In this document: one piece after another, positions 5,948 to 64,000 of the stretch | Numbering within the stretch: the first letter of the stretch is position 1 | How the letters are laid out: each line of letters starts with the position of its first letter | From: Escherichia phage VTCCBPA_211 | Sequence record: PP989838.1 | Direction: 5' to 3' (one strand) | DNA length: 64,000 nucleotides | Position numbers and translations under genes: made by a program | The notes under the pieces: generated by a model | What the model saw: only the letters and a program-made list of their open reading frames with translations | What the model was told of the DNA's origin: nothing | Databases searched by the model: none

Positions 5948-5979
5948 CCTCTTTTAGTACTATGACGCTCTTTCTGTAG
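5948..5979 (+). promoter_or_regulatory. conserved intergenic motif CCTCTTTTAGTACTATGACGC (copy 1; copy 2 at 11708-11740)
   Basis: Near-identical roughly 30-nt block immediately after stop codons at two loci. Confidence 0.35.
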
Positions 5980-11570: not shown

Positions 11571-11801
11571 GAAAACAAATGAGACTTAAAGCATATTCTT
11601 ATGACGATATGATTAACCAAAAAGGCTTCGGTCAACGACAGCCTGATGGTTCAATTATCTGGTTCGTAAACGGACAGAAAAAGGTAGCTAAATAAGCCCT
11701 CTTCTCTCCTCCTTTTAGTACTATGACGCCTCTCTGTGGGCGGCCCAATTTGCGTAGGGAATTCCCTCTACGCAGCCATGACTTTTTAAGGAATTTCCCC
11801 T

Positions 11802-14966: not shown

Positions 14967-15765
14967 GCGCAAATTCCTTATTGGGAGCGATCCCGAGATG
15001 TTCGTTCGTACCAGCAATGGCATTATCACCTCTGTAGCTGGTCTGTTAGGTTGTTCTAAGGACGATAAGATCACTCTGGCTAAGGATGTACGTCTTCAAG
15101 AGGACAATGTACTGGCTGAGTTTGATATCGACCCACAGAGCGGTTTTGACGCGTTTAATGATAACATGCAACGTGGTATTGATCTTACCAATAATGTCCT
15201 GAACAAACTGGACATGGAAGCAGCTCCGGGTGTTAGCTCTCACATCTTCACTGAAGAAGAGATGAAGACTTTCAATGAATCAGCGTTCATCTTCGGGTGT
15301 ACTCCTGATTTCAACGCTTTCACTGGTCAGAAGAATCCATCCCCGACTTCTCAGAATAAGGGACTTCGTACTGCCGGTGGTCACGTACATCTTGGCGTGG
15401 TTGGTGCTTTGGATATCACTCTGCAAACTCAGATGATGCTTGGTGTGCTGTGTGACTACTTCCTGTCTCTCCCAGCAGTGATTATGGACAAAGATACTCG
15501 CCGTAAAGAACTCTATGGCAAAGCATCTGCAATCCGCTATAAAGACTACGGTATCGAATACCGTTCACTGTCTAACTTCTGGATTAGCGATCGTGAAAAC
15601 CGTAAGTTTGTTTACGATCAGGTTGACAAGGTTGTTCAGCAGTGTGATATGTCCACTCTGATGGCATTGCACTCTCGCCTTCCGATTGAGAAGCTTCATG
15701 AAATCATTAACGGGAACAATGTTAAAGAAGCTGACCAGCAGATCAAACTCCTTCAGGTAGCATAA
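14959..15765 (+). CDS. putative GS/GCS2-like amidoligase (carboxylate-amine ligase), paralog 1
   Basis: Motifs GSDPEMF, GGHVHLG, GIEYRS fit the E-x-E / H-V-H / E-x-R pattern of YbdK-like ligases (pattern level only). Confidence 0.5.
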   Translation: MTKRKFLIGSDPEMFVRTSNGIITSVAGLLGCSKDDKITLAKDVRLQEDNVLAEFDIDPQSGFDAFNDNMQRGIDLTNNVLNKLDMEAAPGVSSHIFTEEEMKTFNESAFIFGCTPDFNAFTGQKNPSPTSQNKGLRTAGGHVHLGVVGALDITLQTQMMLGVLCDYFLSLPAVIMDKDTRRKELYGKASAIRYKDYGIEYRSLSNFWISDRENRKFVYDQVDKVVQQCDMSTLMALHSRLPIEKLHEIINGNNVKEADQQIKLLQVA

Positions 15766-15774
15766 GAGGTTATC

Positions 15775-16392
15775 GTGAGCTTAGTATCTGATTTTTCTCA
15801 TTACTATAATGGTACATGGATTGCTAAACGAGCAGGTAATATCAACCTTCCGTGTTTTGTGATTGGTGTTGAGCAGAGCGGTAACTTCCGCAGCGATGAC
15901 TTCTCGCATGAAGCAGAGCAGGCTCTGTATTTTGTTGTAGAGCAGTGGTACAAGAACGAGCATGGGAATCTCCGAAACACTACAATGAATATTCCAGTGT
16001 TCGACCCAACCTTGATTCTTGAATCACCTGACGTTGGTTATCTGTTTCACAACGGTAATACTGTAAGCTGGACTCATATTAACCCTGTTCGTCAGAGAGC
16101 GAAGGGTTTGATGGGTAACAAGATTCGAAACGCTCCGGGGATTGGTCGTTCGATCTCTGGTGAAATGGTTTACAGTCTGTTCAATCCTGAATTCGAAGGA
16201 TTGGTTACTCGTTATATTTACATCAACCCTACGGATGGTAAGGTGCATTATAAAGGTGCACTGGTAGGACAAGTAGATCTGGAAGCGCCTCGTGACTCTT
16301 ACGGTCAGCAATCAATGCGACTTCTGGAACACTTTCATCATATTTCTGAAAACCTTAGCAATTACAATATTACGTTGGTGGATTCGTTATGA
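15775..16392 (+). CDS. operon protein of unknown function (205 aa)
   Basis: GTG start with SD aagaggt; ATGA overlap with next gene. Confidence 0.6.
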   Translation: MSLVSDFSHYYNGTWIAKRAGNINLPCFVIGVEQSGNFRSDDFSHEAEQALYFVVEQWYKNEHGNLRNTTMNIPVFDPTLILESPDVGYLFHNGNTVSWTHINPVRQRAKGLMGNKIRNAPGIGRSISGEMVYSLFNPEFEGLVTRYIYINPTDGKVHYKGALVGQVDLEAPRDSYGQQSMRLLEHFHHISENLSNYNITLVDSL

Positions 16393-27783: not shown

Positions 27784-27992
27784 TGAGACCAATCACTATG
27801 AGAAAATTTTGGTTAGCAAAGATTGAGTGGGCATCAGGTGGCATGACTATGACTGCACTACCCACTCGCCAACAAGCTCGAGATTTTAAAAAGACTATGC
27901 TTACTGGTGACGTGGTCAATAGTATCAGTATCCATAAGGCCAAGGAGTATTCTTCTGGTCGTGTTTATATCAGCGGAAAGGTGCATTACTAA
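27783..27992 (+). CDS. small-protein paralog family B, member 2
   Basis: PTRQQARDFKK; ends HY. Confidence 0.55.
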   Translation: MRPITMRKFWLAKIEWASGGMTMTALPTRQQARDFKKTMLTGDVVNSISIHKAKEYSSGRVYISGKVHY

Positions 27993-32005: not shown

Positions 32006-32745
32006 GTCGTCGTCAATCACGGAAAGAATCACGGAAAGACCTTCGTCGGGAAGCACTTGTCACTCGTAAGGGTAAGCGAGAGTTTGAAGAGGTGGTTTTA
32101 GCAAAGCCTGTAGTCCCTCAGAACCAGTTTCAGTCTGAGCTACTCAATGCTATTAAGACTAAACAAGTTGTGTTCACAGACGCTCCTGCGGGCTGTGGTA
32201 AGACCTTTGTAATCACTTCCACAGTTATTGATGCACTGAAGAGCGGTAAGATTCAGAAGATCATTCTGAGTCGACCTTCGGTTGGCATGGGCAATTCTCT
32301 TGGGCTACTTCCGGGAGGAATGCGTGAGAAGTTTGAACCATACCTGATGCCTATCATTGATGTTATCACTCAGCGATATGGTAAGGGGTTCTATGAATGC
32401 CAACTTGGTAACAGTAACATTGAGTTCGTACCTCTGGAATATCTCCGTGGTCGTTCTTTCAATGATGCTATTGTTATTGTTGATGAGTTCCAGAATACCA
32501 CTAAAGATGAAGCCTTCTCAATCATGACTCGATTGGGAGAAACCTCTCAGCTGTTCTGCATGGGTGATACAAACCAGCATGATATGCGTGGTCGTGAGAG
32601 TGGTCTTACTTGGGCTACTAATTTTATTGATGAACACGATCTGTATGAGTTCGCTGAGATTGTAGACGGCGAATCAGATGACATTGTTCGTTCTGGTTTC
32701 TGTAAAGCCATTGTTAAAGCTATGGAAAAGGAACAAGATAAATGA
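32002..32745 (+). CDS. phoH: PhoH-like ATPase
   Basis: Walker A DAPAGCGKTF and PhoH-family collinearity. Confidence 0.85.
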   Translation: MSRRQSRKESRKDLRREALVTRKGKREFEEVVLAKPVVPQNQFQSELLNAIKTKQVVFTDAPAGCGKTFVITSTVIDALKSGKIQKIILSRPSVGMGNSLGLLPGGMREKFEPYLMPIIDVITQRYGKGFYECQLGNSNIEFVPLEYLRGRSFNDAIVIVDEFQNTTKDEAFSIMTRLGETSQLFCMGDTNQHDMRGRESGLTWATNFIDEHDLYEFAEIVDGESDDIVRSGFCKAIVKAMEKEQDK

Positions 32746-32927
32746 AAGTCGCTTTAGTTATCCGAGATTGTGGTGATGGTTCAGCAACCATCGACTTCTA
32801 CAAAAATATCGAACGAGCGTGTTTTGAGTGTGAAGAGTTCAATGAAGACACCTGCATGAATGATGGAGAACCTACTATCATTGACGTTCCTGATGATTTT
32901 GTACCACCGGGAGGGTGGAGTGAATAG
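32742..32927 (+). CDS. hypothetical small protein
   Basis: ATGA coupling with phoH. Confidence 0.45.
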   Translation: MKVALVIRDCGDGSATIDFYKNIERACFECEEFNEDTCMNDGEPTIIDVPDDFVPPGGWSE

Positions 32928-33108
32928 CACTCAAGAGTTAGTGATAGAAGAGATTAAAGCTCAGATAGTTGATAAACTCTCTATCAGGGTTGATTCTAAA
33001 GACACCAAATGCTCTGGTATATTGAAGATAGAACTTCTTTACAATGGAGAAGTTATTTCCTTTGATGAGGTATATGCCTCTGATATTAAATACTTAGCAG
33101 AGTTTTAA
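32920..33108 (+). CDS. hypothetical small protein (GTG start)
   Basis: GTG 32920 preceded by SD gggaggg. Confidence 0.4.
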   Translation: MNSTQELVIEEIKAQIVDKLSIRVDSKDTKCSGILKIELLYNGEVISFDEVYASDIKYLAEF

Positions 33109-33117
33109 TAGCATCCA

Positions 33118-33126
33118 TAATGTATA
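33118..33126 (+). promoter_or_regulatory. TAATGTATA motif, candidate phage-sigma-dependent promoter element
   Basis: Exact TAATGTATA(CT) about 37 nt upstream of ATG 33163; same 9-mer at 39661 and on - strand at 49285. Confidence 0.4.
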
Positions 33127-33162
33127 CTCCTTAGTGTACACTGATATATTAAGGAGTTTTAA

Positions 33163-33486
33163 ATGGCAGATCATGTAGGAAAGAGAGATTATGCACAAGA
33201 AAGACGTACCGCAATTGCCCGTGGTGAAACAGGCGTTGGGAGCAAGAGCGGAGATGCTCAGCGCCACCGTGCACGTCGCATCGTTGAAAAGCGCGATGGA
33301 AAAGCTGCTGTCAGAGGTAAAGATGTTGGACACAAACGAGCCATCAAGTCAGGAGGCTCTAATGCGTCAAGCAACTTACGTGTTGAAACAGTCAGCGGAA
33401 ATCGTTCAGCTGGCGGCAAAAGTGGAGATCGAGCTGGGAAGGCAGCTGGTGCTGCTAAGCGAAAAGGAGCTTTAAGCTCATCGTAA
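33163..33486 (+). CDS. highly basic Gly/Lys/Arg-rich protein, unknown function
   Basis: Strong SD aaggag; RNY codon periodicity favours this frame over overlapping 33191 ORF; terminator follows. Confidence 0.55.
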   Translation: MADHVGKRDYAQERRTAIARGETGVGSKSGDAQRHRARRIVEKRDGKAAVRGKDVGHKRAIKSGGSNASSNLRVETVSGNRSAGGKSGDRAGKAAGAAKRKGALSSS

Positions 33487-33490
33487 TATA

Positions 33491-33520
33491 AGGCTACCCA
33501 AATGGGTGGCCTTTTCTTTT
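33491..33520 (+). terminator. intrinsic terminator
   Basis: aggctaccc...gggtggcct hairpin followed by tttcttttat. Confidence 0.6.
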
Positions 33521-33554
33521 ATATAAACCAAATTAAACTTCTTAGGTAATAAAT

Positions 33555-33806
33555 ATGTCTATTGTAAAATCTGTAAATATCATTGATGTAATGTCTAACA
33601 ATCGTATGGTTAAATGGAAGTTCACCAATAATCACGGCATTGCTAATATCATTGCAAACCAGATTAGTCATAACCCAAAAACAGCTCGTACTAACGTAAT
33701 CCTACGTGGTGCTGATGGTAAATTCATTTCTTATAAGAATAAAGGTGTAGAGAAAGAATTCCGTGTTGCAGTAGAAAACCTCATCCCATTCCCTAAAGGA
33801 TTTTAA
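33555..33806 (+). CDS. hypothetical protein, paralog pair C member 1
   Basis: KTARTNVILRGADGKFISYKNKG...LIPFPKGF. Confidence 0.55.
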   Translation: MSIVKSVNIIDVMSNNRMVKWKFTNNHGIANIIANQISHNPKTARTNVILRGADGKFISYKNKGVEKEFRVAVENLIPFPKGF

Positions 33807-33807
33807 T

Positions 33808-34092
33808 ATGAATAAATTAGCTATGGTTCAAATTCGAGACACTTTCCCTCTGCGTGAGAATATGAAACCACGCACTTGGTCTTACCTGCTAGCTGAGAGT
33901 AAGACTATCAACAAATATTTTGTAGAGATTGGTTGTATCCCAACCAGTATTACTTTGCTTCCTCATAAAACAGCTAGAACTCATGTGATGCTACGTGACA
34001 GCAAAGGTAAGTTTATCTCTTACCGTGATGAACGAATCAATAGCGATATCAAAAATGCTATGGAATCTTTAATGCCGTTCCCAAAAGGTTAA
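33808..34092 (+). CDS. hypothetical protein, paralog pair C member 2
   Basis: KTARTHVMLRDSKGKFISYRDER...LMPFPKG. Confidence 0.55.
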   Translation: MNKLAMVQIRDTFPLRENMKPRTWSYLLAESKTINKYFVEIGCIPTSITLLPHKTARTHVMLRDSKGKFISYRDERINSDIKNAMESLMPFPKG

Positions 34093-34095
34093 GTT

Positions 34096-34254
34096 ATGAA
34101 AGAGTACATCTATGTAGGACAGCGCTGGTTTGGTGATGAATGGGAAGGTGGTTACAGCGTTGTGAAAGCTTTTAAGTCTGAAGAAGATGCCAAGGCATGG
34201 GTCTTAAAAGATGACGTTGGCGAGAGAACTTACATTGAAGTAGAGGTGGAGTAA
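34096..34254 (+). CDS. small ORF (52 aa), speculative
   Basis: ATG 34096; tight spacing to neighbours. Confidence 0.35.
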   Translation: MKEYIYVGQRWFGDEWEGGYSVVKAFKSEEDAKAWVLKDDVGERTYIEVEVE

Positions 34255-34255
34255 A

Positions 34256-34678
34256 ATGCCATTACCAACTAGACACCAAAACCGTTTCCTAGTTCTTAAG
34301 TGGGATGATATCGAAATGAATCTCACTGAACATGAACTGGATTTGTTCCATGAGCTTTTGTCAGAGATTCGCTCTGGTATTCCTGAACGTCAGTATGTAG
34401 TTATCAGTGATAAACATCCTCAAGAGTTTGAAGAAGCTTGGGGTATGAAGTTAGCTTACATTCAGAGAGCTATCCGAGAAAGAGAAGAAGTCGCTAACCA
34501 AAGGGTTGTGGCTCATTTAGTACGAGAGCAACCTCGTGAAGCTAGGGCTAACCATGCACCACCTCCACCTACTCCTCGGATAGTTGTTAACGGGGCGGTT
34601 AGGGCTTACAGTTATGAAGCTACCATATCAGATATGATAGAAGATAACCAAGCATTTACAGATTTACTTTACCAATAA
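34256..34678 (+). CDS. hypothetical protein
   Basis: ORF. Confidence 0.55.
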   Translation: MPLPTRHQNRFLVLKWDDIEMNLTEHELDLFHELLSEIRSGIPERQYVVISDKHPQEFEEAWGMKLAYIQRAIREREEVANQRVVAHLVREQPREARANHAPPPPTPRIVVNGAVRAYSYEATISDMIEDNQAFTDLLYQ

Positions 34679-34694
34679 TTTAAAGGAGTATAAA

Positions 34695-36071
34695 GTGAGC
34701 AACCCGGACGCTCTTCCATTTTTGACAGAGATGACTGTCGCTGATATAATCTCTAAGCAAGCAAAGCACGGAGTGAGTTTCAACCGAAGAAATGCTCGGT
34801 GGTATGTTCACCTCCTTAAAGAGATTATTGTTAATATTGACAGAGAGTTGATTCCTCTCTTACCTAAGATGAGATTAGACGGCTCTACTTATATGAAGCC
34901 GTTTAAGAAGTCTGGAGCTTTACAGAAGTGGCCTCAAGCTTATTGTGATAGGGTTGGGCTGAAGAGAGAAGATATTGGTGGAGCTTTCACCTGTGTCGAA
35001 TATGTAGACTTTGACCCATCGAAAGATGCACGAGTTAAAGAAGCTCTTATGGATGAGGGCTTTCTTCCTCCAGAGTTTAATGTATCTAAGAAGCCTTGGA
35101 ATACTTTCGAAATTAAGAAAGATATGAGAAAGTATGGAACATACCAAGCATGGTATACTGCTTGGATGCGAGGCAATGCTAAGCAGAAGCAGACAGCCGA
35201 GATGGTTGACGCTGATATTAAGAAGTTCTTAGAAAAGCATTTCAGGTTTAAAACTAAGAACTATATGAAGGCTTACGTATTTGGTTTGGGATTAAACCCT
35301 AATCGTCGTAATCCTGTAACGTTTGATGAGATTAAGAAAGCGCTAGCCACATCAAACAAGTGGCCTACAGCTCCTACAAACCTCGAGGAGACTCTTGAAG
35401 AAGGGTTAGGGGGTGAGCTAGGGAGTGTCGGAAGTTTGCTTAAGAGACGCGTTGTAGCGGCTCACAGGCTAGGTCTTATCAGTGGACTTATAGCAAAGGA
35501 ACGCGAAGATGGTAAACTTTCGGCAGAAGCTAACAGCTGCGCTACGCCGACTTTTCGATTCAAACATCGTATCGTGGTTAATATTCCCTCCCGTGGTCTG
35601 TTTGGTCACGAGTGTCGCAGTTTGTTTGAGTCTGACTATAACTCAGACAGTGATCACTCTCGTCCTTTCGTTATTACTAACGCTGTTCCTGATGGTTGTT
35701 ATATACGAAAAGGTACTAACGTAATTTACGAGAAAGGTAAGCCGGGGAAGAAAGACAAACCTGTAGGCGCTTACAAATATTACATACCCGCTGGTAAAGA
35801 AGTATTCTTAGGGTATGATGGTTCTGGACTTGAACTTCGTATGTTAGTGCATTATCTTGTGAAAGAGTGCCTTGACATGATGGAAGAAGCCAAAGCAGAG
35901 AACGATAAAATTAAGTATCTAAGGGCTGAGAAAGGTTTAGAGGCTGCTTATACTTATCGAGAGGTTCTTCTCTCAGGTGATATCCATTCCCACAACCAGA
36001 AACTAGCTGGCCTACCAACTAGAGATAATGCAAAGACGTTTAACACAATGGGCGTCTATAAATTCCTTTAA
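34695..36071 (+). CDS. family A DNA polymerase, polymerase-domain 5' exon (coding likely ends near 36040-36041)
   Basis: Motif A GYDGSGLELRMLV; ORF ends ...PTRDNAKTF then runs into insertion. Confidence 0.8.
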   Translation: MSNPDALPFLTEMTVADIISKQAKHGVSFNRRNARWYVHLLKEIIVNIDRELIPLLPKMRLDGSTYMKPFKKSGALQKWPQAYCDRVGLKREDIGGAFTCVEYVDFDPSKDARVKEALMDEGFLPPEFNVSKKPWNTFEIKKDMRKYGTYQAWYTAWMRGNAKQKQTAEMVDADIKKFLEKHFRFKTKNYMKAYVFGLGLNPNRRNPVTFDEIKKALATSNKWPTAPTNLEETLEEGLGGELGSVGSLLKRRVVAAHRLGLISGLIAKEREDGKLSAEANSCATPTFRFKHRIVVNIPSRGLFGHECRSLFESDYNSDSDHSRPFVITNAVPDGCYIRKGTNVIYEKGKPGKKDKPVGAYKYYIPAGKEVFLGYDGSGLELRMLVHYLVKECLDMMEEAKAENDKIKYLRAEKGLEAAYTYREVLLSGDIHSHNQKLAGLPTRDNAKTFNTMGVYKFL

Positions 36072-36729
36072 TTCGGTGGACATCTAGAACAGATAATACC
36101 GAGCCAAGCCATCCAATCTGCCTTGAAGACAAGGAGGTGGATTATGATTTGCAGGATTTGTAAAGAAGATAAAAGCGAAGACAATTTCCACAGAAACAGA
36201 ACAAACGTGACTGGACTAGACTACAGGTGTAAAGCTTGTAGGAGAGAAGAAGCACGAATTGGAAGAGAGAGCAATTACTTCCAACACTACTGTAGAGGAA
36301 AGAAATCTGAATGTAAGATAAAGGGTTATGATTTTGACTTAACTCCAGAGTTCTTAGAAGAGATTTGGACAGGATATTGTCCAATATTTGGTGTAGAAAT
36401 CTCAAGAGCTTCGGAAGGAAGAGGATCTCACAACTCAGCACATTTGGACAGAATAGATTCAAGTAAGGGTTACCTAATAGGTAACGTATCTTGGATTAGC
36501 GGCAGAGCAAACCGTATAAAATATGATGCTACTGCTAAAGAGCTTAGATCTATTGCAGATTGGATGGAAGGTGTAACGACTAGTCGTGATGAGTTTAGCG
36601 ACGTAGGGCCAAGCGGCTCGAAACAAGGAACCTCTTAAAAGAGGAAGAGATAGTCTGCTCTGCATGGGGACATGCAGCAGTTCATAAGAGAACGGGGGGA
36701 GTGGTAGCGTACTCCCTTGAACATCAGGT
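36041..36729 (+). mobile_element. putative group I intron with HNH ORF splitting DNA polymerase motif B (boundaries approximate)
   Basis: Upstream exon ends RDNAKTF, downstream frame resumes IYGFLYGAGAAKIGEIVGGG, i.e. the contiguous T7-type motif B as I recall it. Confidence 0.5.
36144..36638 (+). CDS. HNH homing endonuclease
   Basis: SD aaggaggtgg; Cys-rich N-terminus and HLDRIDSSKGYLIGNVSWISGRAN. Confidence 0.8.
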   Translation: MICRICKEDKSEDNFHRNRTNVTGLDYRCKACRREEARIGRESNYFQHYCRGKKSECKIKGYDFDLTPEFLEEIWTGYCPIFGVEISRASEGRGSHNSAHLDRIDSSKGYLIGNVSWISGRANRIKYDATAKELRSIADWMEGVTTSRDEFSDVGPSGSKQGTS

Positions 36730-37227
36730 ATCTATGGATTTCTATATGGGGCAGGCGCAGCTAAGATTGGAGAGATTGTTGGAGGAGGCGCTCAAGAGGG
36801 TGAAATTCTCAGAGAACGTTTCTTAGCAGAATGCCCTTGTATCCCAATTGTCTTGGAGAGAGTACAAGCTCGTGCAGAAACAGGCACTCTTGAAGGTGTG
36901 GATGGTCGTAAGTTGACCATGAGACGGGATGCCACTGGTAAAGTTATGGTTCATAAAGCACTAAACACTTTACTTCAGAGTGCGGGTGCTATTGTCATGA
37001 AATATTCTATTCTCTTCACAAACAAGTGGGTAGATCAGCAGAACATTAGGGGTAACAAAGTAATTGACTACCATGATGAAGCTCAGTGGTCTGTTAACCG
37101 TAACGATGTTGATAAGATGAAAAAGATAGCTGAGACTTGTGTCAAGAAGGCGGGTGAGTACCTAAACATGCACTGTGAGCTAGCTTCTGATTGTAAAATC
37201 GGACTGAATTGGATGCAAACTCACTAA
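36709..37227 (+). CDS. family A DNA polymerase 3' exon (motif B remainder, motif C); splice acceptor likely near 36729
   Basis: Frame open from 36709: GIYGFLYGAG...VIDYHDEAQW (motif C HDE). Confidence 0.8.
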
Positions 37228-37397
37228 ACACAGAACTGAAAGAATAGAATACAAATGAACTAGTCTTATTGATTAGTTCATAATAAGGAGATTGAAGTGG
37301 AAGAGATGCCATCGGATTGGTGTTATCGTCAGAGCGCCATCTGTAATGAACAAGGACGTCCTGATGAAGCTGAGTTTTATTTAGAACTAGCTGAACT

Positions 37398-37592
37398 GTG
37401 GAAAGAACGAGAGGAGAAAGAGTGATGGAAGGTATCTACCGTAAGCCACCTCCGAAGTATAACATCCTTTACACTGACGCAACAGGTGAGTTTAGAAGTG
37501 TGTTAGTTTACACGGATGAAGAACGAAACCAAATGGTTGCTGCTATTGAAGCCAATGGTGGTACAATCATGCGAATTTATAACATAACATAA
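37398..37592 (+). CDS. hypothetical small protein (start uncertain)
   Basis: ORF. Confidence 0.4.
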   Translation: MERTRGERVMEGIYRKPPPKYNILYTDATGEFRSVLVYTDEERNQMVAAIEANGGTIMRIYNIT

Positions 37593-39588: not shown

Positions 39589-39597
39589 TATACATTA
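39589..39597 (-). promoter_or_regulatory. reverse-orientation TAATGTATA motif (function unclear)
   Basis: + strand tatacatta; would drive antisense transcription. Confidence 0.2.
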
Positions 39598-42952: not shown

Positions 42953-43757
42953 GCTCCCTGAAATTGCTCTAGTGGATGCTGACGTTCTTCGATATGAAGT
43001 AGGTGCTCTTACTCAGGAGCATCCCTTTCTTGACACAGGACGTGTTCCAGTTGATTACAATTTCATGATTGAACGGCTTCAGTATAAGATTGATACAATC
43101 ATAGCTCGGTCAGGTTGTAGTAAGGTTGTGTTCTACTTCAGCGAAGGTGGTAACTTCCGTTTCGATGTTGCTAAGCAACAAGACTACAAGGCAAACAGAC
43201 CTCCCGGAGAAAGACCTTTTCACTGGCAAAACGTTGGTGATTACATTAAAGGTAAATATGAATACATAGACGTATTTGGGAGAGAGGCTGATGATGCACT
43301 AGCTGAAAGGCAACGCAGAGATAAGAACACTATCATCTGTACTAGAGACAAGGATTTGTTGATAACTCCCGGATGGCACTACCGTTGGGCTTGTGGAGAA
43401 AGACAGAAAGAAGTTCCTCCTCACTATGTATCTGATTTAGTTTCATGGCAAAACTTCTTCTATCAAATGTTGATTGGAGATGGTACAGATAATATCCCCG
43501 GATGTGGAGAACGTAAAGAAGTTATGTGGGGTGGTAAGCTCCAGCTTCGACGTCAAGGAATAGGGAAGAAAGCAGCAGCTAAACTGTTGGCTGGTGTTAC
43601 AGATAAGTGGACCATGTATCATATAGTACGAATGGAATATTATAAGAAGTTCGATACTGAAGATGAAGAGAAGATGCTTGAGAATGCTCGGCTGCTCTTT
43701 GTTGGTCAGACTCCGGAAGACCTATTTGATTGGTCGTGGTTAAATAAATCTTGGTAA
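42939..43757 (+). CDS. 5'-3' exonuclease / flap endonuclease (FEN family)
   Basis: GREADDAL, YKANR, H3TH-like GDGTDNIPG...GIGKKAAAKLL. Confidence 0.75.
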   Translation: MEEVKLPEIALVDADVLRYEVGALTQEHPFLDTGRVPVDYNFMIERLQYKIDTIIARSGCSKVVFYFSEGGNFRFDVAKQQDYKANRPPGERPFHWQNVGDYIKGKYEYIDVFGREADDALAERQRRDKNTIICTRDKDLLITPGWHYRWACGERQKEVPPHYVSDLVSWQNFFYQMLIGDGTDNIPGCGERKEVMWGGKLQLRRQGIGKKAAAKLLAGVTDKWTMYHIVRMEYYKKFDTEDEEKMLENARLLFVGQTPEDLFDWSWLNKSW

Positions 43758-44665: not shown

Positions 44666-47600
44666 TCACTCCTTAGGTCGAACTCTTACACGGAGTCTCG
44701 ATTGACGCTTACTGCGTTCAAGCTTCTCTGACAATGAGCCACGTTTAATCTTCGGCTTCCCTTCGTCATTAAACTTCTCCAAGAACTTCAAGTACTCAGT
44801 ACGATTCGTTGTCTTGTAAGAAGGAATCTTAACATCAGGGTTCTCTTCGATTACACGTCTCATCTTCGCTACATCATCCCTACCAAGCAACTTACTCTTA
44901 GCCTGTTCAGCTGTAGAACCAAAGATCTTCTCCAGTGCCCTAGATTTGTTACCACCTGCGGAAGAAGCACCAAGTTTAGCAATGGCAGAGTAATCATCAG
45001 CACTAAACCAAGCTACTGGATTATCACCATACTTCTTCTTGTTTTCAGCAGCAGTCTGCAATGCACGCACAAAGCGACGGTTGTTACCAGCCTTATCTGC
45101 ACCATGAACCCTGTCTAAAACTTCAGCCACACTAGCCAACTCATCCAAGCTCTTCCCACTCAAGAAAGCTTTCTCTACTTTATCAGCAAAGACCTCTTCT
45201 TGTTGTTTAATGCTTTCCAAGATATCAGAATTTGCTTGAGATTTTTCATCATCAGGCAGAGCAGAACGAATCTTCTCCATCTCCAACTCTTCCTCTTGCA
45301 GTTTCTTAATATCAGAGTCAACCTTCTGAGCCTCCTCAACAGCCTTCCTAGTATCCGAATCCAAGTTATCAAGCTTACCTTCAGTATTTCCAGTAACCTT
45401 AACAATCTCTTTCTCGATAGGAGTCATTGATTCGTACTTCTTAGCGAACTTCTCAACATCAGCTTCGATACGAGAGCGAGCATTCTGATGTTCAGTCGGA
45501 GTCATAGGCTTCTCAAGAAGTGCATAACGGTTATCCATATAGGAACCAGCAAACGCTTCAGCATCCTCTCTAGATATGCCCTTATCTTCCATAGTACGCA
45601 TCAGGCGGCGATGAATGTCATCACGTTGACGTTGTACTGCCATAAGGTCATTCTCACGCTCTTGGGCCGCTTTAAGCTCTTCACTGCGCTTAACTCTCTT
45701 GTCCACATCAAACTTACGGTTCATCTCTTCCGCTTGCTCATACATCTTGTTCCACTTAGCCTGACGAGCATCTTCCTCTGCATCAGTTAAACGACGCTGA
45801 CGATCAAGGTAATCTGACTCGGCGTTGTGGATACGTTCAATATAACTACGGAACTTCTCTGGAGGAACTGGAGAGTTCTTATCGTGGTGAGCAGCCAACT
45901 GTTTCAGTGTACGAGATTCCTGAGCCTTACGAACAGGTTTAGGTAAACCTTCCATCATCTTCTCAATCTCACTCTTCTGAGCTGCAATAGCCTCTAGAGT
46001 TTTACGTTCATTCTCAACAGCAGCTTTAGCATCCGAACGAGCCTGAGCCTTTTTCCTGAGTGTAGCAAGACGTTCTTCACGAGCCTGTAAATGCTTAGCA
46101 GCAGCTTCGTACTGAGAGTTCTTGTTAGCTTTGTTGAAGGCATTCACTTCTCTGTTATAGGTGTTAATAAACCCATCCCAAATATCCTTCATCTGACCAA
46201 CTTCCAAAGCCTCTTCCCTACCAGCCTTCTCTGAAGATTTAAACTTTCCATCTACAAAGTCATTCATCAATTTACGCATAGCGTCTTTCTGAGCAGGACG
46301 TAAAGGTTCTGCATCAATCAAAGTATCAATCTCAGACTGAAGCTCTTTCTTCTGGTCAACCAGCTTAGGAGCATTCTTGTTATCGAAAGCTTTATTCTCT
46401 TCTAGAGCTTGTTGGTACAGTCTATCAAACTCATCTTCACGCTGCTTCTGATACAACCTTTCAGCACGACGTTTCAGACTATCCAAGTTAGTTACGTTCC
46501 CACCTAAACCTTTCTCTTCAGCACGTAATGCCTTAGTAGCAATGTCTTCTGGCAGACCACGTTCTTTAACCCATTCAGCAAAGTTAGTTCGTACAGTGTT
46601 GTTCTTAGCAGTAGCAATACCTTGCTGAGAAGCCAGCTGGTTACGAGCCATCTCTTCATGACGTTCAGTGTTGATAGCATTATCTTCCCGACGAATACGC
46701 CGCATCAACTCCAAAGGGTCTCCCTTGTAAGCCAAGAAGTTTTCAGCAGTAGCTTTAGCTTTAGCAGCCTTAGAGTATAAAGATTTAGCAAAACGTGTTG
46801 CACGATCTTTAGCAACTTGACGAGCAGTGCTTGACATAGCAGCTAGGAATTCTACACCACTTTCCGGTTTAACATCCTGTACAGCTTCCTGAGGAGCTTT
46901 AGGGGAACGGGTAGGTAATGGATCAGCTTGTCTTAGAGAACTAGCTTTGACCATATCATTTGAGTCAACCAAATTATGGTTACGCAAAAACTGTTGCTCA
47001 GCCGGGGTGAACTGATTTAGGCGAAGGGCAATGTTGCCATTTAAATCTTGAGAAAGTATCCCATCTTCAGCATAGTGAGAGAGAGATTCTTTAGTAACAG
47101 AAGATGCATCCTCTGATGAAGCCTTTTGGCCCTCTTCTTGAGCACGTTGCTGCTCTGTTGCACGGCGCTCCTCTAAAGGATTACGAGCAGGAAGAGGTTC
47201 AGCCTGTGGAGCTTGTTCAACAGGAGCTTCTTGAGCAGCCAATGCCTCTTCTTCAGCGCGACGCTGTTCAGCCTGACGGATAGCACGTCTTTGAGCAACT
47301 AAATCACGAGCCGTAAGAGGGGCTTCTTGAGGAGCAGAAGAAGGAAGATTTTCTTCCGTCACAGTACTAGAAGAAGGCTCCCGAACCGGTTCGGTTTCCA
47401 CGTCATTTTGCGTCTTAAAATTAATGTCATCAACAGCTGGTTCTTCTTCCATCTTAGTGCGAGCTTCATCAGCAGCGGATTTAGCACGAGCAACTTCCAA
47501 ATCACCACGAGCTAGAGAGCGGATAGCTTCACTGTTAGATTCTTGTTGCTTAACACGTTGAGAGCGAGCACGCTGAGAAGAGAAGCGATTCAGAGCATAT

Positions 47601-62799: not shown

Positions 62800-64000
62800 T
62801 TACTCAGAAGGCATTTCAACACGAACTGAGATAAAAGCATCACTCGGGATATCAATAGGATCACCGTCAGAGAAACCTTCTATCTCATTTCTAGCAAAAA
62901 CCGGAGAGGTTGGATGGGTTCTGTGATAGGTTTTAACTAAAATAGAACCATCTTCTTTAATCCCATAATCCAGCCAAACCCTAGGTTGTTTGTTGCGATC
63001 AGTAGGAATTTCAAAGCCGCCGTCGATGCCTCCCCATTTTGCATCTGCGTTTAAGCCAAGGCAGCCGGTAATCAAGTACTCACCAACACCTTGCCGAATG
63101 ACATTAACCCCCTCAGATTCCTCGTTCGTCTCATATCGACCGTTTGAGTAAATATTAACTATCGGAGATGCCGCTTTGATAAATCCGTTTACATCAGTAG
63201 TGGTGTTTTTGTTTGTAAGACAATGGACATATTTTATTGTTCCGTCTGCAATCTTTATTGCGTAAGATATACGACCATATCCTGAGGCTTCGCCACCAGA
63301 TCCTGCATAGGACACACCGTGGGCAATCCAGAAGTTAGTATCCTCTGGCTGCATATACCAGTAGCAGTTAAACATATCTAAAGTAAACAGGCCATTCCCG
63401 GAGGCATGTTGGACACGATCACCAGCACCACCTACGCCTGAATTTGCTGGAGTGTTACTTAGCGCTCCAATATTGAACCTTGCACCAGCAGCATCTCCAG
63501 CCCCTGTCCCACCATTAGCAACAGGTACATTATCCAGAGTAGAAACACTTCCCAACCCTAAATTAGATCGGGCACTAGCAGTATTATTCGCTCCAGTACC
63601 ACCATTGGCAATTGGTATGATATCTAGAGTAGCTGTTGGACCTAAACCAAGGTTAGCAAGTGCCTCACTGGCTGTAGATGCTCCAGTACCACCCGCTTCT
63701 ATAGATACTGGATTAGGTGTCCAGCTCTCAGAGGAGAGATCACTTCTCTCTTGTACAATAAAGTACCCATCATCCCTTAATACAATCCTGTTTAACAGGT
63801 TCGGGGAGAAGATAAATGCATGATTGTTTTGACTGGTAAATGGGTTTATTTTTAAAACATCACGAATCCCATCTACGGTTGTAGATCCAGTCCCTCCTTG
63901 AGAGATGGATAACGGCGTTGTGAGTCCAGATAAAGATGTAATGTCAGAGTTTGCACCAGAAGCGGCAGCACCTAAGATAGATCTGGAGATGTTTACGTTT
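62800..64000 (-). CDS. tail fiber with tandem phage tail-fibre repeats; 5' end lies beyond window
   Basis: - frame has no stop from 63556 to 64000 (checked codon by codon); repeats STLDxxPxANGGTGAxxxAxARxNLGLG. Confidence 0.6.
   Translation of the reverse strand, partial: NVNISRSILGAAASGANSDITSLSGLTTPLSISQGGTGSTTVDGIRDVLKINPFTSQNNHAFIFSPNLLNRIVLRDDGYFIVQERSDLSSESWTPNPVSIEAGGTGASTASEALANLGLGPTATLDIIPIANGGTGANNTASARSNLGLGSVSTLDNVPVANGGTGAGDAAGARFNIGALSNTPANSGVGGAGDRVQHASGNGLFTLDMFNCYWYMQPEDTNFWIAHGVSYAGSGGEASGYGRISYAIKIADGTIKYVHCLTNKNTTTDVNGFIKAASPIVNIYSNGRYETNEESEGVNVIRQGVGEYLITGCLGLNADAKWGGIDGGFEIPTDRNKQPRVWLDYGIKEDGSILVKTYHRTHPTSPVFARNEIEGFSDGDPIDIPSDAFISVRVEMPSE

Follow-up and report, generated by a model that had tools for sequence, protein, structure and literature searches.

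In the 64,000-nucleotide stretch of Escherichia phage VTCCBPA_211 (PP989838.1) analysed here, which is called the window below, a plus-strand open reading frame (ORF) extends from the ATG at 33163 to the stop codon at 33486 and encodes a protein of 107 amino acids. Judged by its sequence, the window is a phiEco32-like coliphage (Gordonclarkvirinae, Kuravirus), and the stretch 32700-34200 shares 89-94% nucleotide identity with O18-011, phiEco32 and relatives. The protein is the ortholog of phiEco32 gp58 and belongs to phrog_4590 (E = 1.4e-38 against PHROG 4590, where no function is assigned), and its gene lies between PhoH and DNA polymerase, as does gp58 in phiEco32. SU10 gp56, NJ01_067 and ECBP2_0054 are further direct orthologs. 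Over its first 80 residues the protein shares 88.8-98.8% identity with the orthologs of the Kuravirus group (tblastn); against the closest clusters, it is approximately 86-95% identical over the full length. phiEco32 gp58 is annotated as 'hypothetical protein', its Kuravirus orthologs are labelled likewise, and the literature searched for gp58 together with phiEco32 contained no mention of it and no published function for the family. We propose that this protein may be a motif-specific nickase, a reading whose chances, given the comparisons assembled here, we put at even or slightly lower.

The product has a calculated mass of 11.07 kDa and an isoelectric point (pI) of 11.47, with 26 Lys and Arg against 10 Asp and Glu, 17 Gly, 17 Ala, 12 Ser and no Cys; elsewhere in the window, only one ORF of at least 80 amino acids is equally basic. 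The initial annotation described it as a low-complexity protein with repeated GxK/R. Six G-x-K/R triplets and the C-terminal tail bear this out in part, but true low complexity is limited to that tail (approximately residues 84-107), whose length differs among relatives, whereas residues 8-88 are highly conserved. The ORF and the signals claimed around it were all found in place, and the idea of a dedicated expression unit is upheld by a known phage-sigma promoter, a strong Shine-Dalgarno sequence and a terminator. The Shine-Dalgarno sequence AAGGAG (33151-33156, +), read from the sequence, lies 6 nt before the ATG. The intrinsic terminator that closes the unit (33490-33522, +; terminator scan) has a stem of 10 bp with six G-C pairs at 33490-33513, followed by a T-run; it is kept in phiEco32 and EP335, with changes confined to the loop, whereas inserted genes take its place in EcoN5, SU10 and EK010. 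From the promoter start and the terminator, a monocistronic mRNA of approximately 390 nt is predicted.

The variable sites among seven Kuravirus-group sequences are distributed over the three codon positions as 21/10/51, and the codon differences divide into 450 synonymous and 172 nonsynonymous ones in the 107-aa frame, against 51 and 556, respectively, in the overlapping frame; on this pattern of substitution, the 107-aa frame is the coding frame and is under purifying selection. The initial annotation had left room for the protein being undetectable, or for the overlapping ORF at 33191-33475 being the translated one. On the first point, the mass-spectrometry table of SU10 lists CDS (coding sequence) 56 with 10.8 kDa, two peptides and 18.3% coverage, matching the computed mass of the SU10 ortholog gp56 (10.83 kDa); its authors place CDS 56 among the middle-gene products carried over into a phage preparation that was not purified on caesium chloride (CsCl). 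As to the second, the overlapping ORF (+1 frame, 94 aa) is present as had been described and stays open in every close relative, only 4% of codon shuffles contain a stop-free run of its length, and in the GenBank record of LUZ24 it is the equivalent alternative frame that is annotated, as gp26. Nevertheless, the differences between relatives are almost all nonsynonymous in that frame, its product matches nothing in PHROG or Pfam, its ATG is not at the corresponding position in three relatives, homologs of 55-60% identity are found for the 107-aa frame only, and the mass seen by spectrometry fits the 107-aa product, which leaves the +1 frame a negligible probability. In LUZ24 itself (AM910650.1), the annotation of gp26 (15668-15937), which reads 'contains transmembrane domain', follows the wrong frame; the true homolog is a conserved, HNH-like ORF of 103 aa at 15622-15933 (MEDCRLAKKRVRNYKRERELAIRRGETGVGSKSGDAQRHRARR...).

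Codons 28-42 (KSGDAQRHRARRIVE, 33244-33288, +) have one form each, synonymous sites included, in 11 Kuravirus-like phages, among which more than half of the codons outside this block vary. The overlapping +1 frame is invariant over these codons too, and they do vary in more distant homologs; RNA covariation was not found within them. The 45 invariant nucleotides could be a DNA- or RNA-level element or the target of a homing endonuclease. Co-conversion by neighbouring homing endonucleases was considered as a source of invariant blocks and is unlikely, the blocks being short and interleaved with diverged stretches.

The motif upstream of the gene had been called promoter-like, which is correct as to its presence and understates what it is, namely the published consensus tAATGTAtA of the gp36-dependent promoters of phiEco32. 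This is the single consensus element of the promoters read by the phage sigma factor gp36, of which phiEco32 has six, upstream of genes 6, 13, 26, 40, 58 and 68, and transcription starts 6-8 bp downstream of it. In the window, TAATGTATA (33118-33126, +) is an exact match 37 nt before the ATG and the equivalent of P58; five exact copies are found against 0.65 expected, a number that none of 100 shuffles reaches. An identical element occupies the orthologous place in phiEco32 (42937, -), and the element is conserved in phiEco32, EcoN5, SU10, EK010, EP335, NJ01, ECBP2 and KBNP1711; in Supplementary Table S3 of PMC8948821, P58 is entered among the middle promoters, with conservation in NJ01, ECBP2, KBNP1711, SU10 and 172-1. 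Two other sites of the same sequence were observed in passing. A divergent pair of TAATGTATA elements lies 72 bp apart at 39589 (-) and 39661 (+), with a phiEco32 counterpart at 36704 (+) and 36632 (-, P40); the minus-strand partner of the pair does not belong to the six promoters that have been published, and no obvious gene follows it. For the copy at 2253 (+), the phiEco32 matches to (T/A)AATGTA(T/G)A include no counterpart.

Directly behind the promoter element, a 13-bp RNA hairpin is predicted at 33126-33157 (+), consisting of a left arm (33126-33138), a loop of 6 nt (33139-33144) and a right arm (33145-33157) into which the Shine-Dalgarno sequence falls. It has a folding free energy of -14.7 kcal/mol in RNAfold (z = -4.2), and none of 200 shuffles is as stable. 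The predicted P58 start, 6-8 bp past TAATGTATA, is at approximately 33132-33135 and thus inside the left arm; because of this, the P58 transcript would lack the CUCCUU that pairs with the Shine-Dalgarno sequence, and a transcript beginning at 33133 folds with only -1.6 kcal/mol and leaves that sequence free (RNAfold). No credible terminator was found between the upstream genes and P58, and therefore read-through RNA should carry the closed hairpin. Six phages from three genera share the 42-nt block of promoter, hairpin and Shine-Dalgarno sequence without a single difference, although the DNA upstream of it is unrelated among them, and one relative has a U-A to U-G change that retains the pairing. 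In L029, which has a 75%-identical homolog, TAATGTAATA is followed by a hairpin of other sequence (CCUUAUAU/AUAUAAGG) that again covers the Shine-Dalgarno sequence. A search of 32500-37500 with Rfam gave nothing credible at the locus, RsaD and Phe_leader scoring far below their gathering scores. The arrangement suggests that translation may be gated by the hairpin and released by the phage-sigma promoter.

In phiEco32 the gene is classed as middle. In phage 7-11 the homolog is gp068, and one gene upstream of it lies P69, a late promoter that has been validated; in SE131 a GTAAGT-N16-ACTA element that matches 7-11 P69 is found at 43067 (+), approximately 290 nt upstream of the homolog gp085 at 43361-43702. 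Transcription by a phage sigma factor thus appears to be conserved for this gene, though the promoter consensus differs.

Homologs of 90-115 aa and 55-70% identity are found in phages of Escherichia, Pseudomonas, Salmonella, Cronobacter, Aeromonas, Vibrio and Proteus. In 102 of them, 16 positions are invariant: R8, E13, R20, E22, T23, G26, S29, D31, R34, H35, A37, H57, G64, N71, N80 and G85. Only the C-terminal tail is variable. When LUZ24 ORFs were compared with those of SE131, A24, APT65 and the window, the gp58-family protein was the most conserved shared protein, with a mean identity of 61.5% against 46% for the primase-helicase, 37-51% for the parts of DNA polymerase, approximately 40% for TerL and 30-40% for the enzymes of the amidoligase cluster. 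The gene is among approximately 24 that are common to all eight phiEco32-like and 7-11-like phages in a table of the 7-11 paper. A profile search of 1.84 billion representatives gave 382 clusters, mostly of 80-115 aa; some larger proteins carry a copy of the domain at their C-terminus (P0210, P0217, P0220, P0228 and P0263), and no Pfam domains hinting at a function were found in them. In every lineage examined, the gene is located 0.6-2 kb upstream of a family-A DNA polymerase gene on the same strand. That polymerase is exonuclease-less, and a separate 3'-5' exonuclease, a primase-helicase and nucleotide-metabolism genes are located nearby.

The conserved core of the protein resembles a beta-beta-alpha-metal (HNH) core, placed at residues 53-86 (33319-33420, +), in which H57 is the putative general base, N71 and N80 are motif residues and G64-G65 form the conserved turn. 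The motif layout is R34-x2-A37-R38-R39 ... V55-(D/G)56-H57 ... G64-G65-x-N67 ... N71-L72 ... N80, and its spacing fits DH-x6-GG-x5-NL-x7-N. In 247 sequences, H57, N71 and N80 are 95-98% conserved (H57 98%, N71-L72 0.95/0.84, N80 0.96). When 26 homologs were compared with Pfam, 20 gave weak matches to PF01844 (best E = 0.0015) and seven to HNH_3 (best E = 7.5e-5), and the remote members P0232 and P0197 exceed curated Pfam HNH cut-offs, with 24.1 against 21.4 bits and 25.8 against 24.8 bits, respectively. The secondary structure predicted by AlphaFold2 is a helix, a beta-hairpin (53-57 and 72-76) and a second helix (77-86), which corresponds to the beta-beta-alpha fold, and some databases label homologs 'HNH endonuclease' or 'McrA'. 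We therefore place moderate confidence in the HNH-type motif and fold, and the protein is likely to be a core component of the replication module that has an HNH fold and resembles a DNA enzyme. The only Pfam match of the window protein itself, to Arteri_Gl (E = 0.46), was set aside as spurious.

The possible target of such an enzyme is suggested by earlier work on Pseudomonas phages. In phage tf, 14 nicks have been mapped in TACT/RTGMC on one strand; Rembedalsseter has 13, and UFV-P2 has 15 copies of the motif. The motif has been described for a cluster of approximately 61 Pseudomonas phages, physical nicks having been shown for tf and Rembedalsseter, and this literature names no nickase and states that the function of the nicks is not known. 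The genomes of tf-like phages, LUZ24-like phages and UFV-P2 carry a gp58 homolog, the one of tf being 59% identical if contig L018 is tf.

Ten complete or near-complete genomes that carry the gene, the window included, were scanned for the motif, and TAC(T/G)RTGAC(G) was present in all ten. Outside the Kuravirus group it occurs on one strand only or nearly so (counts are given as one strand : other strand). LUZ24 has TACTRTGMC at 9:0 and GTACTATGAC at 7:0, with 0.04 expected for the 10-mer; in Salmonella phage SE131, WACTRTGMC occurs at 12:1 and CTACTGTGA at 14:1 (0.36 expected for the latter). Cronobacter phage A24 has ACTACGGTGACG at 7:1 and the core 10-mer GTCACCGTAG at 8:1 (0.01-0.05 expected), Aeromonas phages APT65 and 4_4572 have ACTACGGTGA at 5:0 (0.06 expected) and ACTACGGTG at 10:2 (0.29 expected), and E. 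coli phage PJNS034 has ACTACTGTGACG at 8:0 (less than 0.01 expected). In all six, it is the strand encoding the early and middle genes that has most or all of the copies. A reading of the motif as a sigma promoter of the 7-11 type was tried and rejected, since the copies of SE131 and PJNS034 have no upstream GTAA-N16 or common flank and sites with the promoter pattern are found elsewhere. LUZ24 also has a second, strongly strand-biased repeat around ACCCTTGGG/CCCAAGGGT, the masked pattern of which occurs 21-25 times on one strand against approximately 3 expected.

In the window, GTACTRTGACG has three exact copies against 0.04 expected, and none of 100 shuffles reaches three. Two are copies of GTACTATGACG in the early region. 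The first, a candidate target, lies between ORFs at 5957-5967 (+) and has orthologs in phiEco32 at 70583 (-) and in EP335 at 69745 (-); the second lies at 11718-11728 (+), and its orthologs, at 63061 (-) and 62266 (-), respectively, fall between annotated genes. The third copy, GTACTGTGACG at 47357-47367 (-), is inside the ortholog of phiEco32 late gene 26, with orthologs at 27940 (+, inside gene 26) in phiEco32 and 28241 (+) in EP335. The three sites are thus at orthologous places in phiEco32 and in EP335, a phage of another genus, and in them the core TACTRTGACG is kept, R varies and the flanks diverge. Allowing one mismatch to WACTRTGMC gave no enrichment in the window (65 against 90 expected), and k-mer scans of the window (Markov, masked and exact) returned only codon-periodic patterns such as GAAGAAG and GCTGCTG, and no high-copy, one-strand 9-12-mer like those of LUZ24 or SE131.

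One residue of the protein appears to follow the motif. Residue 30 (KS-G/K-DA) tracks motif base 4: LUZ24, tf, SE131 and Kuravirus combine G30 with TACT, and A24 and APT65 combine K30 with TACG. Two predictions were written down beforehand, TACG for 4_4572 (K30) and TACT for PJNS034 (G30), and both were confirmed.

The explanation proposed here, for and against which we see the balance as even, is that a gp58-family HNH protein acts by a mechanism of four steps that includes nicking at the motif. In the first step, the gene would be transcribed from the gp36-sigma promoter P58, which is known from the literature for phiEco32 and is recognized here by identity of sequence and position. In the second, upstream read-through RNA would fold into the 13-bp hairpin and bury the Shine-Dalgarno sequence, and P58 transcripts should be translatable because they start inside the left arm; with the hairpin closed in read-through RNA, folding and conservation suggest that the protein would not be synthesized before the phage sigma factor becomes active. 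In the third step, the protein would recognize the asymmetric TAC(T/G)RTGAC(G) through the HNH core and the basic N-terminal module and cut one strand, which would yield the 'localized single-strand interruptions' that have been mapped in Pseudomonas phage tf, at TACT/RTGMC. We infer this step from the fold, from the co-occurrence of gene and motif, from their parallel conservation, the high conservation of the protein being matched by the near-invariance of the motif, and from the two confirmed predictions. In the fourth, the system of the Kuravirus-like phages would have been reduced to three positionally conserved sites, with G56/E75 in place of D56/R75; whether this variant is active is the least certain step. 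The expression timing fits the nickase reading, the gene being a middle gene in phiEco32 and phage-sigma promoters being located near the homologs of 7-11 and SE131. In its widest form, the proposal is that the gp58 family is the missing nickase of tf and LUZ24, that nicking is a conserved trait of the whole LUZ24-like and prolate (C3) podovirus supergroup, whose hosts are Pseudomonas, Salmonella, Cronobacter, Aeromonas and Escherichia, that recognition co-evolves with the protein, G30 pairing with TACT and K30 with TACG, and that the system in Kuravirus is down to three fixed sites and hairpin-gated; this we put forward tentatively, as somewhat short of an even chance.

Several observations weigh against this explanation. 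The AlphaFold2 model is of moderate confidence, with a mean pLDDT (predicted local distance difference test) of 69-71 that rises to approximately 80-85 over residues 30-80, the window protein matches no Pfam HNH model at E <= 1, the family profile finds no chain at E <= 10 among PDB sequences, and every Foldseek match in the PDB is non-significant (E >= 2), although nearly all of them are HNH proteins. The window has only three copies of the motif, two on the plus strand and one on the minus strand. The link between residue 30 and base 4 may reflect one evolutionary switch, since the nearest neighbours of K30 proteins are themselves K30 in 21 of 38 cases. The common descent of the genomes confounds the co-occurrence of gene and motif, and among the genomes scanned there was none with the motif and without the gene and none with the gene and without the motif. 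Other shared nucleases (TerL, the 5'-3' exonuclease or the T7 endonuclease-I-like enzyme) could make the nicks. As to the hairpin, support from covariation is almost nil, the promoter-hairpin block being invariant: RNAalifold on ten transcripts, in which the 5' hairpin does not vary, gave a covariation term of 0.08 and supported no structure in the coding region.

The residue before H57 also counts on this side, as it is G56 in the window and in the whole Kuravirus group and is thus neither acidic nor His, whereas across the homologs position 56 is Asp in 78%, the orthologs of LUZ24 and SE131 being of this type, and His in 4%. The Asp that precedes the HNH His (D839 in Cas9, D40 in T4 endonuclease VII) helps to hold the metal. 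The window protein, however, also has E75 where most homologs have R75 (codons 56 and 75 are at 33328-33330 and 33385-33387), and the two positions covary: D56 is accompanied by R75 in 116 of 193 clusters, and G56 by Glu or Gln at position 75 in 23 of 27 (Fisher p = 5e-20, with the kinship of the sequences ignored). Because G56 is so tightly coupled to E/Q75, the G56/E75 pair may represent a remodelled rather than a decayed active site.

The nickase has to be weighed against other accounts of the same protein. It may instead be a replication or recombination factor that has an HNH fold and a task of its own, independent of the motif, either a non-specific or structure-specific nuclease (to degrade host DNA or trim branched replication intermediates) or an accessory of the split exonuclease/polymerase, while another enzyme, for example terminase in packaging, makes the nicks. 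We consider this unlikely, yet a serious candidate: the constant position 0.6-2 kb upstream of the exonuclease-less polymerase and near the exonuclease, primase-helicase and nucleotide-metabolism genes suits it. The gating of a nuclease by a late promoter inside a hairpin has a precedent in T4 endonuclease VII (gene 49), which is a beta-beta-alpha-metal resolvase; moreover, a connection of the nicks with packaging was the preferred view in the tf paper. What such a role leaves unexplained is the top conservation of so small a protein in the supergroup, as well as the tracking of the motif by residue 30 with its two confirmed predictions, and an 'endonuclease' of the T7 endonuclease I type is annotated in tf and in the prolate phages SE131, A24, APT65 and 4_4572. 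For the Kuravirus clade with G56/E75, it is further conceivable, and in our judgement improbable, that catalysis has been lost and that a sequence-specific, DNA-binding pseudo-nuclease serves an origin function or regulation at the three sites. This would fit the replacement of the metal-holding Asp by Gly in the window and all close relatives, the fall in motif copies from 8-15 to three, the location of two of the three sites of phiEco32 and EP335 between annotated genes and behind a pyrimidine tract, and the missing Pfam HNH match of the window protein. On the other hand, the coupling of positions 56 and 75 suggests that an active-site carboxylate or amide was relocated, not decayed, and H57, N71 and N80 stay invariant under clear purifying selection.

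The initial annotation had thought of an abundant DNA-condensing or internal virion protein or of an RNA-binding factor. A role in nucleic-acid binding is consistent with the findings, and the pI of 11.47, the richness in Gly, Ala, Ser, Lys and Arg, the strong expression cassette and the peptides found in the polyethylene glycol-precipitated SU10 phage preparation would all agree with that idea. However, the gene belongs to the middle or replication module and not to the structural one, the SU10 authors class the protein as middle-gene carry-over in an unpurified sample, and the motif of the conserved core, in which His and Asn are invariant, is of an enzyme type; we regard the idea as very improbable. 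Ten virion-associated proteins are reported for CsCl-purified virions of the related phage Privateer, the portal, the capsid proteins and a tail tubular protein being named among them, and the homolog may be among the ten. Equally hard to sustain, and if anything still less probable, is the reading of the gene as a selfish mobile element that encodes a free-standing HNH homing endonuclease. The HNH motif, the small size and the frequency of homing-type endonuclease genes at the same spot in relatives speak for it, but the gene is single-copy, syntenic and present in all lineages from Pseudomonas to Escherichia phages, with no sporadic distribution or variable position and with the highest conservation among the core genes. 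The mobile endonucleases nearby are of different kinds, canonical HNH_3 or Endonuclease_7; they are inserted beside the gene, and therefore the gene itself is not a mobile element.

In many relatives, such mobile endonuclease genes (HNH, HNH_3/NUMOD4 and Endonuclease_7) directly adjoin the gp58 homolog on its upstream or its downstream side (L002 2281-2775, L007 921-1415, L009 1131-1511, L026 2841-3248, L029 2830-3321 and L030 1995-2492), and in EcoN5, EK010, Bas86 and L029 the insertions overlap the start or stop codon of the homolog. The gene is thus an insertion hotspot, and adjacent insertions are typical of highly conserved target genes. The DNA polymerase gene of the window is itself interrupted: a part of 458 aa (34695-36071) is followed by an HNH-like ORF of 171 aa (36123-36638) with the motif HLDRIDSSKGY...N...N and by the C-terminus (36853-37227), whereas the polymerase of phiEco32 is a single uninterrupted gene of 614 aa. 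A group I intron match at 36463-36677 is weak (19.4 bits, E = 0.11) and below the gathering score. The insertion is probably intron- or intein-like and carries a homing endonuclease, as has been reported for LUZ24. Just inside the start of the polymerase ORF, at 34722-34750 (+), lies a perfect sigma-70 consensus promoter (TTGACA-17-TATAAT with an upstream TG, 12/12).

The ORF, the promoter and the nick motif were already known, as was the HNH label in a few database records; that packaged phage DNA can contain nicks at specific sites has been known for approximately 50 years from T5 and since 2012 from tf-like phages. Relative to the literature searched, the new elements are the recognition of the gp58-family 'hypothetical protein' as the most conserved core protein of the supergroup and its association with the nick motif; the motif in Salmonella, Cronobacter, Aeromonas and Escherichia phages, its TACG variant and the three conserved sites of the Kuravirus-like phages; and the covariation of positions 56 and 75 and the hairpin that sequesters the Shine-Dalgarno sequence. 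A candidate gene of 100 aa makes the source of the nicks directly testable. If the proposal is true, the protein would be among the smallest sequence-specific nicking enzymes, recognizing approximately 9-12 bp, with natural specificity variants and of use as a reagent; the nick system would span several phage families and hosts, and corrections to databases would follow (the frame of LUZ24 gp26 and the 'hypothetical protein' labels of Kuravirus). If the nickase reading is wrong, a supposed low-complexity ORF is still the top-conserved core gene of the supergroup, with an HNH signature and an apparent T4-like gate.

Compared with phiEco32 gp58, the gene of the window has the same promoter P58, hairpin and terminator, and there is no material difference. 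The putative gate has its closest parallel in T4. There, genes e, 49 and I-TevI have the Shine-Dalgarno sequence in a hairpin of long early transcripts, and transcription from a later promoter begins within that hairpin and sets the sequence free, a device used for nucleases that would do harm if expressed early. The later promoter is read by gp55 in T4 and, in the arrangement predicted for the window, by the extracytoplasmic function (ECF)-like phage sigma factor gp36. With regard to the interruptions of tf, Rembedalsseter, UFV-P2 and LUZ24-like phages, the genomes outside Kuravirus that carry the homolog have this motif core in excess, with all or nearly all copies on one strand; in distinction to the tf-type system, the motif is here also found in Salmonella, Cronobacter, Aeromonas and Escherichia phages and with a TACG variant. 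The protein differs from the HNH enzymes of Geobacillus phage GVE2 (5H0O) and of Geobacter (Gme, 4H9D) and from the HK97 gp74 type in having no CxxC zinc-finger pairs and no Cys at all. Unlike the small HNH nickases of phages and bacteria, it has its own N-terminal module, KRDY-QER-TA-RGETGVGSKSGDA, its gene adjoins DNA polymerase and not terminase, and it remains below the Pfam thresholds. Finally, I-HmuI, the HNH nicking homing endonuclease of SPO1, is intron-encoded, mobile and equipped with extra DNA-binding domains, whereas the gp58 family is a core gene without such domains.

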